A stretch of 41,315 bases of DNA from an uncultured Candidatus Saccharibacteria bacterium (GCA_964404565.1 CAYOKK010000003.1:1-41315); one strand, 5' to 3'. Positions 25,487 through 35,229 are shown, counted from the first letter of the stretch. A program made the numbers and translations. Notes: generated from the sequence alone by a model not told the origin.

Positions 25487-25924
25487 ATGAACCCTTCTGC
25501 AAGGACAGCACCACGCGGCTTCACCCTCATCGAGCTTCTCGTCGTAATCGCGATCATCGGCCTGCTGTCGAGCGTGGTGCTGGCTTCCTTGAATTCGGCG
25601 CGCGCAAAGGCGCGCGACGCGAAGCGGTATTCCGACCTGCACTCGATACAGCTCGGACTCGAGCTCTACTACTCAGATAGGGGAACGTACCCCGCTCATT
25701 CCTCGAACACCACCGTCGCCGACTCGCTCGGCGTGCTGGTTCCAGGGTATATAGCGGCGCTGCCGGAAGATACGGTGTATACCGGAAGCTATGGATATCG
25801 GTACTGTATGGCGGCCGGTTCGTATACGCTCCTCGCGCGCGACGAAGGCATAAGCAACTGGTGCCGCGTCTCTACCAGCGGCAACGCCTGCGGCTGGAAT
25901 CAGTTCGCACCCTGCGGACAGTAG
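25487..25924 (+). CDS. Type IV pilin/pseudopilin-like protein 1
   Basis: Class III signal RG|FTLIELLVVIAIIGLLSSVVLASL; YYSDRGTYP; 4 C-terminal Cys. Confidence 0.93.
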   Translation: MNPSARTAPRGFTLIELLVVIAIIGLLSSVVLASLNSARAKARDAKRYSDLHSIQLGLELYYSDRGTYPAHSSNTTVADSLGVLVPGYIAALPEDTVYTGSYGYRYCMAAGSYTLLARDEGISNWCRVSTSGNACGWNQFAPCGQ

Positions 25925-25965
25925 CGCGTGATACCATTACCACATAGCCATAACCTGTTTCTGTA

Positions 25966-27006
25966 ATGACCCCGACCCGCATCGCTATCAACGGCTTCGG
26001 CCGCATCGGCCGCGCCTTCGTGCGCCAGGCATATGACCGCCCTGAGCTCGAGATCGTCGCCGTGAACGACCTCGGTTCTCTTGAAAACCTCGCCTACCTT
26101 TTGAAATACGATACGGTGTACCGCCGTGCGCCGTTTTCCGTAGAGGCTACGCCGGCAGCCGCCGAAGGGCAGCCGGGAACGCTCGTGATCAACGGCAAAG
26201 AGGTCGCCTTCCTCTCAGAAAAGGATCCTGCCCAGCTTCCGTGGAAAGACCTGAACGTCGACGTGGTCATCGAGTCCACCGGTTTCTTTACGGACTATGA
26301 AAAGGCGAACGCGCACGTCGCCGCAGGCGCGAAGCACGTGGTTATCTCGGCTCCGGTGAAGAATGAGAATCCGCTCGGCGCCACCGTGCTCATGGGTCTG
26401 GACGAGAGCAAGATCGGTGCATGCCCTATAACCAGCAACGCCTCGTGCACCACGAACTCGGCGAGCCCGGTCATCGCTATCCTCGATGAAGCGATCGGCA
26501 TCGAGAAGGCGGTTCTCTCCACGACGCATGCGTACACGGCGAGCCAGTCCATCGTGGACGGCCCGTCGAAGAAGGATGTGAAGGAGGGCCGCGCAGCGGC
26601 CCAGAATATCGTGCCGACAAGCACCGGCGCGGCCATCGCCGTAACCAAGGCATACCCGGCCTTGGCAGAGAAGTTCGACGGCATCTCGCTGCGCGTGCCG
26701 GTGCCGGCCGGTTCGATCGCAGACGTGACCTTCGTCGCCAAGCGTCCGACGACCGCAGAGGAGGTGAATCAGATCCTGCGCGATGCTGCGGCTTCCGACC
26801 GCTGGAAGGGGATATTCTCTACGTCCGACGAAGAGCTCGTCTCGAGCGACATTATCGGCGAACGCTTCGCGTCTATCGCCGATTTGGGCATGACGCGCGT
26901 CGTAGACGGAGATTTGGTGAAGGTGCTCGCCTGGTACGACAACGAAGCCGGGTACACGCATACGCTCGTCGAGCACGCCATAAAGGCAGGGCAGGCAGCT
27001 GCATAG
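25966..27006 (+). CDS. gap: Type I glyceraldehyde-3-phosphate dehydrogenase
   Basis: IAINGFGRIGR, VVIESTGFF, catalytic SNASCTTN, RAAAQNIVPTSTGAA, WYDNE. Confidence 0.98.
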   Translation: MTPTRIAINGFGRIGRAFVRQAYDRPELEIVAVNDLGSLENLAYLLKYDTVYRRAPFSVEATPAAAEGQPGTLVINGKEVAFLSEKDPAQLPWKDLNVDVVIESTGFFTDYEKANAHVAAGAKHVVISAPVKNENPLGATVLMGLDESKIGACPITSNASCTTNSASPVIAILDEAIGIEKAVLSTTHAYTASQSIVDGPSKKDVKEGRAAAQNIVPTSTGAAIAVTKAYPALAEKFDGISLRVPVPAGSIADVTFVAKRPTTAEEVNQILRDAAASDRWKGIFSTSDEELVSSDIIGERFASIADLGMTRVVDGDLVKVLAWYDNEAGYTHTLVEHAIKAGQAAA

Positions 27007-27070
27007 TGGGGAAAGAATCCCGCGCGCGCTGCTTGTGCGATACTATGAGTACATACCTAACCTAATAGAG

Positions 27071-27364
27071 ATGGAACACGAATCAAACCTTGGCCGCGAA
27101 GTAGACCAGCTTAAGAAGCAGGTGCGGGTGCTCAGCTATGTGCTCGGCATCAGCGTCATCATAATCGCGCTCATCCTCACCTATACGCTCCCGTCAGTCA
27201 TCCAGAACAACACGTTCCGCGTGCAGTGGCGCGTGCATCATGAGGGAGAATCCATGGCGAACGATAGCGCCGATATGGATATGGATATGAGTGGAGGTAT
27301 GGACATGTCAGAGAACGCGTCAGCATCTTCATCGGCAGCTGAAGCGGCTGAATCCGCTCCGTAG
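27071..27364 (+). CDS. Small single-TM protein with His/Met-rich C-terminal tail; start ATG 27071 preferred
   Basis: Short coiled coil, TM VLSYVLGISVIIIALILTYTL, VHHEGESM...DMDMDMSGGMDM. Confidence 0.65.
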   Translation: MEHESNLGREVDQLKKQVRVLSYVLGISVIIIALILTYTLPSVIQNNTFRVQWRVHHEGESMANDSADMDMDMSGGMDMSENASASSSAAEAAESAP

Positions 27365-27366
27365 CC

Positions 27367-33378: not shown

Positions 33379-33422
33379 ATACGTGAGAGTGTACCATCCG
33401 GCATGCGCTATACTGTGTGCAT
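33379..33422. promoter_or_regulatory. Divergent promoter pair for the PfkB kinase and fba in a 44-bp gap
   Basis: Plus strand TATACT 33409-33414, 8 nt before the fba ATG; minus strand TGG-TACACT (33388-33393), 9 nt before the kinase ATG. Confidence 0.65.
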
Positions 33423-34433
33423 ATGATCGATCTCGCGTACGTCTCGAAACAGCTTCTTAAGTCAGGGAAGGGCATCCTCGCTGCCGACGAGAGCACCCAT
33501 ACGGCAGACAAGCGCCTCGCGCAATACGGCATCACGCCTTCCGAGGAAATGCGCCGGAAGTACCGCGACCTGTTCTTGTCCGCGCCGGGCGCAGAGAAAT
33601 ATCTTTCAGGCGTCATCCTCTATGAAGAGACGCTGACGCAGCGCGCAGACGACGGGACGCCCTTTCCCGAGCTCCTCGCCAAGAAAGGCGTCATCCCCGG
33701 CATCAAGGTAGACCAAGGGCTCGAGCCGTATCCCGAAGGCGGGAAGGAGACGATAACGAAGGGACTGATCGGCCTTCCTGAGCGGCTCGCCGACTACCGC
33801 GCGAAATACGGCACCGGCTTCACGAAGTGGCGCGCGGCGATCACGATAGACGGCACGCAGTTCCCGACAAGCCAGGCGATACATGAGAACATGAAGCGTC
33901 TCGCAACGTATGCGCTCGAAGTGCAGAAGGCCGGTATGGTGCCGATGGTCGAGCCGGAAGTGCTGCTCGCCGGGGCGCACAGCCGCGTGCGCTGCCGCGA
34001 AGTGCTCGCGAAGGTCATCGAGGCGCTCATGCGCGCGCTCGACGATCAGGCGGTGGACCTTTCCTGCGTCATTCTCAAGACATCCATGGCGCTTTCAGGA
34101 AGCGAGAGCGGGCATGCCGATACGCCGGAAGAAGTTGCAGAAGATACTGTGCAGGTACTGCTCGAGCATGTGCCGCGCGAGCTTTCCGGCATCGTGTTCC
34201 TTTCCGGCGGGCAGTCGACGGAGCAGGCGACCGAGAACCTCCGCGCGATAGAGGAGTATGCGCGCGAGCGGAATGCGCCGTGGCCGCTCACGTTCTCGTA
34301 CGCGCGCGCGCTTCAGGACGAGGCGCTGACGCTGTGGGAAGGGAAGGAGGAGAACGTGCCGGCAGCGCGCGAGGCATTCCTTGAGCGCCTGCGCGAAGAC
34401 GCCTGCTTCACGCTCCCCAGTTCAGACTGCTAG
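33423..34433 (+). CDS. fba: Class I fructose-bisphosphate aldolase; start ATG 33423 preferred
   Basis: GKGILAADES, GVILYEET, PGIKVD, KWRA, PMVEPEV, Schiff-base ILKTSM, FLSGGQS, WPLTFSYARALQ. Confidence 0.95.
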   Translation: MIDLAYVSKQLLKSGKGILAADESTHTADKRLAQYGITPSEEMRRKYRDLFLSAPGAEKYLSGVILYEETLTQRADDGTPFPELLAKKGVIPGIKVDQGLEPYPEGGKETITKGLIGLPERLADYRAKYGTGFTKWRAAITIDGTQFPTSQAIHENMKRLATYALEVQKAGMVPMVEPEVLLAGAHSRVRCREVLAKVIEALMRALDDQAVDLSCVILKTSMALSGSESGHADTPEEVAEDTVQVLLEHVPRELSGIVFLSGGQSTEQATENLRAIEEYARERNAPWPLTFSYARALQDEALTLWEGKEENVPAAREAFLERLREDACFTLPSSDC

Positions 34434-34473
34434 GGAGAATTACGAGCGGTATTACCTGCTATCATATCCGTAT

Positions 34474-34725
34474 ATGGACGACGTACAATTCAACGAACCA
34501 GAGATCGCGCGCCCTGTTTCGGCAGCGGCGCCGACAGAAAGCGCGATGACACGGCTTTTTATAAAGTTCGGCATCGCGAAAGACCAGAAGAGCGCTCAGC
34601 GCGCAGGGCTGGTCGTGGCTATCATCGCCATAGCGCTCACGCTGTTCATCATTATTCCCGACAGAGGCCCTGAGCCTGTAGATAATACGATGCTTACGCC
34701 GGGCATGGAGCCGATGGTTCCCTAA
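34474..34725 (+). CDS. Small single-TM hypothetical protein; start ATG 34474
   Basis: MDDVQFNEPE...MTRLFIKFGIAKDQKSAQ, TM GLVVAIIAIALTLFIII; extended -10 TGCTATCAT 8 nt upstream. Confidence 0.7.
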   Translation: MDDVQFNEPEIARPVSAAAPTESAMTRLFIKFGIAKDQKSAQRAGLVVAIIAIALTLFIIIPDRGPEPVDNTMLTPGMEPMVP

Positions 34726-34740
34726 GCAGAATGTCTGAGT

Positions 34741-35229
34741 ATGCGTACGCACGGCTTCACCCTCATCGAGCTTCTGGTGGTCATCGCGATCATCGGGCTG
34801 CTTTCAAGCGTGGTGCTCGCATCCTTGAACACTGCGCGCGAGAAAGCGCGCGCGAGCGCGATCAAGGCCCAGGTACTGCAGTTCCGCACGCTCATGGAGC
34901 TTGAGTATTCTGAAACCGGAAGCTATGCGAATCTGAACAAAGGTTGGGCTTCCGCGACCTCGAATTGCGCATCAAAATATAGCGGAAGCTATGCAGCGAA
35001 CGCCGGCGCAATCTGCGAGGCGCTCAAAGGGCTCGTGGCGAACCCGAGTGCGAACGGCTACATGTACACCGGCGTGAATACGGGCGCAGGATTCAGCGAT
35101 AGCGGCCAGTATTCGATCATGGCGCGCTTGCCGGGAGGGACGTTCTTCTGTGCCGGCTCGAGCGGGGCGACGAGCGATACCACGACTGGCGGTTCATGGG
35201 CATCAGCCGGCTGCTACGGCAATCCCTAA
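34741..35229 (+). CDS. Type IV pilin-like protein 5
   Basis: HG|FTLIELLVVIAIIGLLSSVVLASL; EYSETGSY; FFCAGSSG; 4 Cys. Confidence 0.93.
   Translation: MRTHGFTLIELLVVIAIIGLLSSVVLASLNTAREKARASAIKAQVLQFRTLMELEYSETGSYANLNKGWASATSNCASKYSGSYAANAGAICEALKGLVANPSANGYMYTGVNTGAGFSDSGQYSIMARLPGGTFFCAGSSGATSDTTTGGSWASAGCYGNP

Follow-up and report, generated by a model that had tools for sequence, protein, structure and literature searches.

Shared 5' tracts of type IV pilin genes in a Candidatus Saccharibacteria bacterium probably arose by short-tract gene conversion

The DNA analysed here (hereafter the window) is a stretch of 41,315 nucleotides from an uncultured Candidatus Saccharibacteria bacterium (GCA_964404565.1 CAYOKK010000003.1:1-41315), which forms the entire contig C3 of a bin of 38 contigs and 686,590 bases (G000; C-numbers designate contigs of the bin). 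Between positions 25487 and 35229, it carries five complete pilin open reading frames (ORFs), p1 to p5, every one on the plus strand. Two pairs of these genes, p2/p3 and p4/p5, are nearly identical over a short tract encoding the N-terminal helix, while the globular heads they encode are only 22% and 21% identical, respectively. Short-patch ectopic gene conversion probably copied 73–94 nt of the helix tract between neighbouring paralogues and homogenised it. With the same good confidence, we take this to have been ordinary gene conversion, involving no dedicated system for swapping heads.

The tracts are listed in Table 1. Within the p2/p3 block lies an exact run of 76 nt (27391-27466 = 29270-29345). 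This run, the p4/p5 tract (72/73) and a 22-nt match between p1 and p2 (25596-25617 = 27458-27479) had been pointed out in an earlier reading of the DNA made without database searches (the sequence-only reading), and all of these coordinates and identities were exact on re-comparison. In the bin, 18 ORFs carry a prepilin motif and the long N-terminal helix is common to 12 of them, giving 66 within-genome pairs. A 99-nt comparison of the 5' tract gives 5 differences for p2/p3, 6 for p4/p5 and 7 for a tandem pair of pilins on contig C23, compared with 13–29 in the remaining 63 of the 66 pairs. These three are also the closest pairs among 26 pilins of eight genomes of the genus.

The same excess of identity was found at synonymous sites. 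Over codons 4–28, p2 and p3 show synonymous mismatches at 0 of 24 sites, against 7–18 mismatches in the 63 other pairs; the probability of finding none is 9.4e-9 with position-specific codon pools and ~1e-11.5 with genome-wide codon usage. Codon bias alone, which the sequence-only reading had named as a possible refutation, cannot explain the p2/p3 and p4/p5 tracts. Moreover, a GENECONV-like permutation (12 sequences, 63 polymorphic sites, 10,000 permutations), following the GENECONV test that reading had proposed, gave global P values of 0.0011 for p2/p3, 0.0108 for p4/p5 and 0.0004 for the C23 pair. The 22-nt match between p1 and p2, which had been counted as a sign of mosaicism, does exist but is not significant in this permutation (global P 0.55), and it is therefore evidence of nothing.

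It could be argued that codon choice converged because selection acted on the mRNA or on how the signal-anchor region is translated, given that the tract is a presumably highly expressed, membrane-targeting sequence and that all 12 genes use one codon at 5 of 25 positions. Such convergence is extremely unlikely, since the ten other genes encode the same residues with 7–18 codon differences and the two pairs carry two different codon sets, as had already been remarked from the differing codon choices of p2/p3 and p4/p5.

Comparing the tract with the rest of the same genes, we found that the excess stops at the tract. Among identical residues, p5 and p4 use identical codons at 23 of 24 positions in the tract and 10 of 25 elsewhere (Fisher 3.4e-5), and p2 and p3 at 28 of 30 and 14 of 31 (Fisher 6.1e-5). 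For p5 and a pilin ORF on contig C15 (the C15 pilin), codon identity is uniform, with 12 of 23 in the tract and 40 of 81 in the rest (Fisher 1.0). The synonymous sites outside the tract are old, because codon identity falls there to 40–45%, from 93–96% in the tract. This speaks against the idea that p2/p3 and p4/p5 are young duplicates whose heads then diverged very fast. Pilin heads do evolve fast, and a p2+p3 clade of heads is not rejected (p 0.19). However, p5 has a close relative elsewhere in the bin, the C15 pilin (head 68% identical, whole protein 70%), and its nearest relative beyond the genus, at 57% identity, lies in a distant Candidatus Saccharibacteria metagenome-assembled genome; for p4/p5, recent duplication is already contradicted by the tree test given below. 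Overall, we regard it as most improbable.

The 5' and 3' parts of p4 and p5 support incongruent ancestries. In the head tree, p5 groups with the C15 pilin (95/88, starred), a pilin of the related genome G018 joins them (99/95, starred), and the approximately unbiased (AU) test on heads rejects a p4+p5 clade (p 6.7e-5). The 5' tree, in contrast, groups p4 with p5 at 94/91. In a triplet alignment of p5, p4 and the C15 pilin, the informative sites of the patch side with p4 in 16 cases and with the C15 pilin in 1, whereas 3' of the patch nearly all informative sites side with the C15 pilin; the 5' edge of the patch is bounded by three mismatches. The shared block is thus confined to the interior of genes that are otherwise old and unrelated, and it is this arrangement that argues for short-tract ectopic gene conversion. 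The separate 5' and head trees called for by the sequence-only reading therefore bear out its expectation of incongruence for p4/p5, while those for p2/p3 do not settle a grouping (p 0.19 and 0.31). Its account of the heads stood throughout: p1 and p4 are 48% identical overall, with the motifs it had named, and 42% identical in their heads. The likeness of the p5 and C15 pilin leaders (MRT..G) was set aside as evidence, as it is too short and the G018 relative has a different leader.

The way in which such tracts may have arisen can be pictured as follows. Purifying selection on the helix would keep the 5' ends of pilin genes similar enough for RecA-dependent pairing; RecA is encoded at C4:22512-23297 (449.8 bits). 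Recent copying of ~73–94 nt between p2 and p3, which lie 1.9 kb apart, and between p4 and p5, 3.05 kb apart, would have removed synonymous differences from the tract, while the head-coding parts kept their old, unrelated sequences. The outcome would be a mosaic gene with incongruent ancestry in which the constant part moves, and hence concerted evolution of the helix tract rather than diversification. Indeed, since the part exchanged is the constant one, the process homogenises rather than diversifies. Conversion would then follow from the conservation of the helix as a side effect, and not be a function under selection.

The sequence-only reading had proposed the opposite, namely that heads are exchanged by recombination in the helix-coding tract as a scheme of pilin diversification. 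Recombination inside the tract and mosaic ancestry hold; head exchange does not, the patch being internal and no heads being alike. If exchange were recurrent or programmed, crossovers in the tract would move head segments between expression slots and diversify the pilus surface. The separate histories of the 5' and 3' parts would fit, the conserved tract is a natural homology anchor, and the same slot holds unlike heads across species: before gap, G000 has p1 and G018 a head of the p5 family, and the fba/L25 slot, with its conserved small membrane ORF, holds unlike heads in G000, G015, L042 and L046 (G- and L-numbers designate genomes and loci). Yet these slot differences equally fit fast head divergence or independent insertion, the shared block ends within the gene at both sides, and a copied head would leave two similar heads, of which none exist. 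The tracts are also direct repeats with essential genes between them, so that a crossover would delete these genes, and there is no homology 3' of the heads, so that conversion running through a head lacks far-end homology. Contigs of a near-identical population from a second study, although their coverage is thin, still carry the p1 tract together with the p1 head, and the p2 tail together with rpiB. We therefore hold head exchange to be decidedly unlikely.

Moreover, hardware for switching was looked for and not found. No recombinase family was detected among the 25 window ORFs scanned with Pfam, no G-quadruplex (G4) motif occurs on either strand of the window, and there are no inverted repeats of at least 20 nt in 25000-36000. 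No common upstream or downstream motif and no feature resembling a target duplication was seen in the flanks of the pilins. There are no truncated silent pilin copies either: all five genes have a start codon, a leader and full length, in agreement with the sequence-only reading, which had noted this as a difference from Neisseria pilS.

Because the source is a somewhat redundant metagenome bin (38 contigs), the tracts might also have been homogenised during assembly or polishing, or a chimeric join might have been made. Unitigs do break at the tract repeats, and depth is raised in the depth bins that contain the tracts, since other organisms share the motif. However, in a check based on Logan contigs, which are independent of the original assembly, unitig contigs of three runs join ~30 nt of tract to each unique flank with 0 differences. 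The two direct repeats also leave a single linear path that uses all segments, and this path is the gene order of the 20 loci of relatives described below. Joints found near the tracts do not match the register of the repeats (skip 1859, register 1879), have sides of 21–30 nt and were flagged as unreliable. An artefact is thus very unlikely. The joints 27396->29256 (skip 1859), 27441->29447 and 34796->35263 were rejected as rearrangements and read as pilins of other organisms that share the motif.

A separate irregularity concerns positions 32520-32522, in the kinase gene, where contigs of three runs lack 1 and 2 letters; their summed depth is high, ~95-114 in two runs and 17 in the third. These contigs probably belong to a different, abundant organism with which a short stretch is shared.

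The pattern seen in the window recurs in two species at the canonical pilus locus, where a short and a long pilin gene stand in tandem in G000 (133 and 174 residues from the cleavage site) and in G018 (129 and 174). Over the first 87 nt, the two genes of the pair differ at 1 position in G000 and at 0 in G018, whereas all four comparisons across the two genomes give 12/87 differences. This is the classical signature of concerted evolution. The comparison of within- and between-genome differences rests on this tandem pair, p2–p5 having no recognisable orthologues. In G017 (L036, C1:619000-626500), three tandem pilins with a spacing of 489 bp have heads 75–100% identical; unlike the patches of the window, they are similar over their full length and represent plain recent duplication.

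Several points weigh against conversion as the explanation. Tests on short alignments are weak. On the 102-nt 5' alignment, a grouping of p5 with the C15 pilin formally survives the AU test (p 0.085), and so does a p2+p3 grouping on the alignment of heads (p 0.19). Given the latter value, it is not a tree that makes the case for incongruence in p2/p3, but head identity of 22% set against 0 synonymous changes. The four operon pilins of G021 and the three of G015 show no near-identical tracts, the closest pair having 16/99 nt differences, and conversion would therefore be episodic rather than constant. No fully covered sister strain was found, as a metagenome scan with a species-specific tktN pattern gave 9 loci that are all genus-level relatives (tktN 73–88% identical in amino acids). 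The Logan contigs break inside every tract (e.g., 27420/27437, 29299/29316, 31734/31758 and 34809), so that linkage across each tract rests on the original assembly and on synteny. Finally, conversion is stated per pair (p2/p3, p4/p5), with no donor or recipient assigned, and any direction of copying would be a matter of interpretation.

A further reservation concerns the composition of the bin. Two of its segments are present twice at 84–85% nucleotide identity (C12:1-4216 vs C16, C13:17906-20662 vs C31), and a second fusA is among them. Given these duplicated segments, the bin probably holds some DNA of a second, related population. C15 may belong to that population, in which case the C15 pilin would be a homologue and not a paralogue; the incongruence would stand. 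The duplicated segments bear on whether the "paralogues" number 12 and on how C15 is to be regarded, and not on p1–p5, which lie on one contig.

As judged from their sequences, p1–p5 are genuine type IV pilin genes of full length, from a bacterium with a small genome, because motif, Pfam matches and alignments agree and because the genome also has genes for a prepilin peptidase, for two platform proteins and for an assembly ATPase. All five ORFs match N_methyl (PF07963) at 28.6–35.7 bits, against a cut-off of 21.2. The prepilin-peptidase motif G|FTLIE follows a short basic leader in p1, p2, p3 and p5; p4 has A|FTLIE, its position -1 being Ala and not the usual Gly (31702-31704). Both p3 and p4 align with solved pilins and with the pseudopilin GspG from mature residue 1. 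Among the phmmer matches in the PDB, residue 1 of the chain corresponds to Phe +1 in GspG (5wda), Geobacter PilA, Thermus PilA (6xxd) and Neisseria PilE. The N-terminal helix (FTLIELLVVIAIIG[LI]LSSVV...) is encoded by all major-type pilins of the genome.

A structure model of p3, built on 25 pilins, has a mean predicted local distance difference test score (pLDDT) of 72.1. It has an N-terminal helix at residues 4–55 (pLDDT 87–96), followed by a helix at 89–100 and three strands within 117–142, which form a three-stranded sheet. In a Foldseek search of the PDB, its top three matches are type IV pilins (6xxd, 1ay2 and 5vxx; E 0.4–0.55, template modelling score 0.30–0.56), none of them significant, and no match reaches E 0.001. 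The pilus machinery is encoded on C23 and C6 (Peptidase_A24 with A24_N_bact, two T2SSF and T2SSE). On C23 the order is PilC-pilin-pilin-PilD, and C6 carries PilB-PilC plus minor pilins.

The setting of these genes is a block, gap-rpiB-rpe-tktN-tktC-kinase-fba-L25, which 19 genomes of the genus conserve at 20 loci in all. No pilin is present at 13 loci, and the other 7 hold 14 pilins in total; with G000 included, eight different junctions are used, and the 9 metagenome loci vary likewise in the pilin content of the block. In the window, p1–p5 are single genes tightly packed in the gaps (Table 1): p1 starts 9 nt past the stop of the preceding glycine-rich protein gene, p2 starts 2 nt past a small membrane ORF (27035-27364), p3 starts 18 nt past the preceding stop codon, the ATG of p4 overlaps the stop codon of tktC (ATGA, 31666-31669), and p5 starts 15 nt past another small membrane ORF. 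A scan of 24300-36100 for promoters and terminators gave counts at chance level (5 vs 4.3 expected; 8 vs 7.8 expected). Among sequencing runs, no RNA run was found to contain the stretch.

Table 1. Pilin genes, conversion tracts and neighbouring genes of the window, with related small ORFs of other loci.
Feature	Position	Strand	Evidence	Remark
p1 (pilin 1, 145 aa)	25487..25924	+	ORF; Pfam N_methyl, E 2.1e-8	upstream of gap
p2 (pilin 2, 164 aa)	27367..27861	+	ORF; Pfam	gap/rpiB slot
p3 (pilin 3, 172 aa)	29228..29746	+	ORF; Pfam	rpe/tktN slot
p4 (pilin 4, 163 aa)	31666..32157	+	ORF; Pfam N_methyl and T2SSG	tktC/kinase slot
p5 (pilin 5, 162 aa)	34741..35229	+	ORF; Pfam	fba/L25 slot
probable conversion tract, p2	27373..27466	+	92/94 nt identical to 29252-29345	
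probable conversion tract, p3	29252..29345	+		partner of 27373-27466
probable conversion tract, p4	31729..31801	+	72/73 nt identical to 34780-34852	
probable conversion tract, p5	34780..34852	+		internal patch; partner is p4 31729-31801
gap, glyceraldehyde-3-phosphate dehydrogenase	25966..27006	+	Pfam; syntenic in 20 loci of relatives	operon backbone
rpiB	27927-28409	+	Pfam; synteny	operon backbone
rpe	28487-29209	+	Pfam; synteny	operon backbone
tktN (split transketolase)	29798-30667	+	Pfam; synteny	operon backbone
tktC (split transketolase)	30671-31669	+	Pfam; synteny	operon backbone
PfkB-family sugar kinase	32374-33378	minus	Pfam; synteny	operon backbone
fba, class I fructose-bisphosphate aldolase	33417-34433	+	Pfam; synteny	operon backbone
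small predicted membrane ORF	27035-27364	+	no Pfam family above cut-off	directly before p2
small predicted membrane ORF	34381-34725	+		directly before p5; overlaps fba end
small membrane ORFs of relatives	L018 13418-13666; L042 10130-10558; L046 10992-11195			preceding pilins

The bin shows a comparable arrangement in a ribosomal block: on C12 (L031, 2277-9341), the order is fusA, pilin (4566-5147), tuf, rpsJ (6595-6957), pilin (7043-7561), rplC and rplD. At the fusA/tuf and rpsJ/rplC junctions, none of seven relatives has an ORF with a pilin motif (0/7), and the gaps there measure ~70 nt to 2.7 kb. In the relative G003 (L051, C1:205500-216000), fusA and tuf are split into many short ORFs, which looks like assembly frameshift errors rather than biology.

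One conceivable explanation of this setting is that the 5' helix tract acts as a portable homology anchor, through which pilin genes or heads are captured into gaps of core blocks without a recombinase; we consider this unlikely. Capture would proceed with one homologous and one illegitimate end, from paralogues or from DNA taken up from relatives. Its targets would be strongly transcribed blocks (glycolysis/pentose-phosphate and fusA-tuf-rpsJ-rplC), and the conversion tracts would be its footprints. If so, each species would obtain its own fast-changing set of attachment pilins. The setting itself, with pilins in varying gaps of one conserved operon across species, deserves study more than the conversion does, and it may reveal how a reduced genome acquires and expresses new surface genes.

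The small membrane ORF before p5 probably has its true start further downstream, given that the ORF overlaps the end of fba. Homologues of it precede the pilin in the fba/L25 slot of G015, L042 and L046, and it may encode a pilin-associated accessory protein. The two small membrane ORFs that precede p2 and p5 show no mutual similarity (E 0.54).

Upstream of the pilins, the window holds a giant ORF (7091-24481) of 5796 aa with a high content of Gly, Thr and Ser; its DNA contains internal repeats (e.g., 11401-11811 vs 19387-19791, and 12121-12451 vs 13519-13849). It is followed by a glycine-rich protein gene (24518-25477; Pfam Gly_rich_2) directly upstream of p1. Both products are probably surface proteins. 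At the other end, a large ORF with CARDB domains (38563-41313) runs off the window and likely encodes another surface protein.

Conversion of the helix tract in these genes is a case of a known process, segmental concerted evolution, here in type IV pilins of an ultra-small bacterium. It offers a clean, well-controlled example in a pilin family with a presumed role in the attachment and DNA uptake of ultra-small, host-dependent bacteria. As practical consequences, the 5' ends of pilin genes are unusable for inferring their relationships, identical 5' tracts in such genomes are not to be taken as Neisseria-like switching, and these tracts are repeats that break short-read graphs. In the literature searched, which did not cover subscription journals, we found no account of conversion between type IV pilin paralogues in the candidate phyla radiation, nor any of pilins inside glycolytic or ribosomal gene blocks.

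Among known systems, Moraxella tfpQ/tfpI is an invertible pilin switch with a constant 5' part, alternative 3' parts and the invertase Piv. Invertible pilin switches need inverted alternative segments and a site-specific recombinase. The window differs, since its pilins all lie on the plus strand and it lacks both inverted repeats and a recombinase within the ranges given above.

In Neisseria pilE/pilS, a single expression locus receives variable-region sequence from silent copies that lack a promoter and are truncated at the 5' end, with the aid of a G4-forming sequence near that locus (PMC3547852, PMC13321361). Gene conversion among pilin copies of one genome is common to both; in the window, however, every copy is complete, it is the constant part that is transferred, and no G4 motif occurs.

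A closer likeness is offered by interlocus gene conversion and concerted evolution of bacterial paralogues such as tufA/tufB and flagellin genes, as described in the accessible part of a survey in which "pilin" and "pilus" have 0 occurrences (PMC6053082). Here too, copying is non-reciprocal within a genome, paralogues are more alike than orthologues, and the genes encode parts of multi-subunit assemblies. Unlike in those cases, the pilins of the window are homogenised over 73–94 nt only, the rest being almost unalignable, and the partners are not in tandem but have essential metabolic genes between them.

Type IV pilins of the same kind of organism are thought to serve cell-cell contact and DNA uptake, in a paper whose available portion treats the presence and enrichment of pilins and not gene position or conversion (PMC6744442). 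Nanosynbacter lyticus TM7x has been described as having two type IV pilus systems (T4P-1 and T4P-2) and, across four loci, 12 putative pilins that include orphans; in the part of that article at hand, recombination, gene conversion and mosaic pilins have 0 occurrences each (PMC11623550). The bin resembles TM7x in having two sets of pilus machinery, about a dozen pilins, orphans among them, conserved N-termini and diverging C-terminal parts. It differs in that most of its major-type pilins sit inside housekeeping gene blocks.

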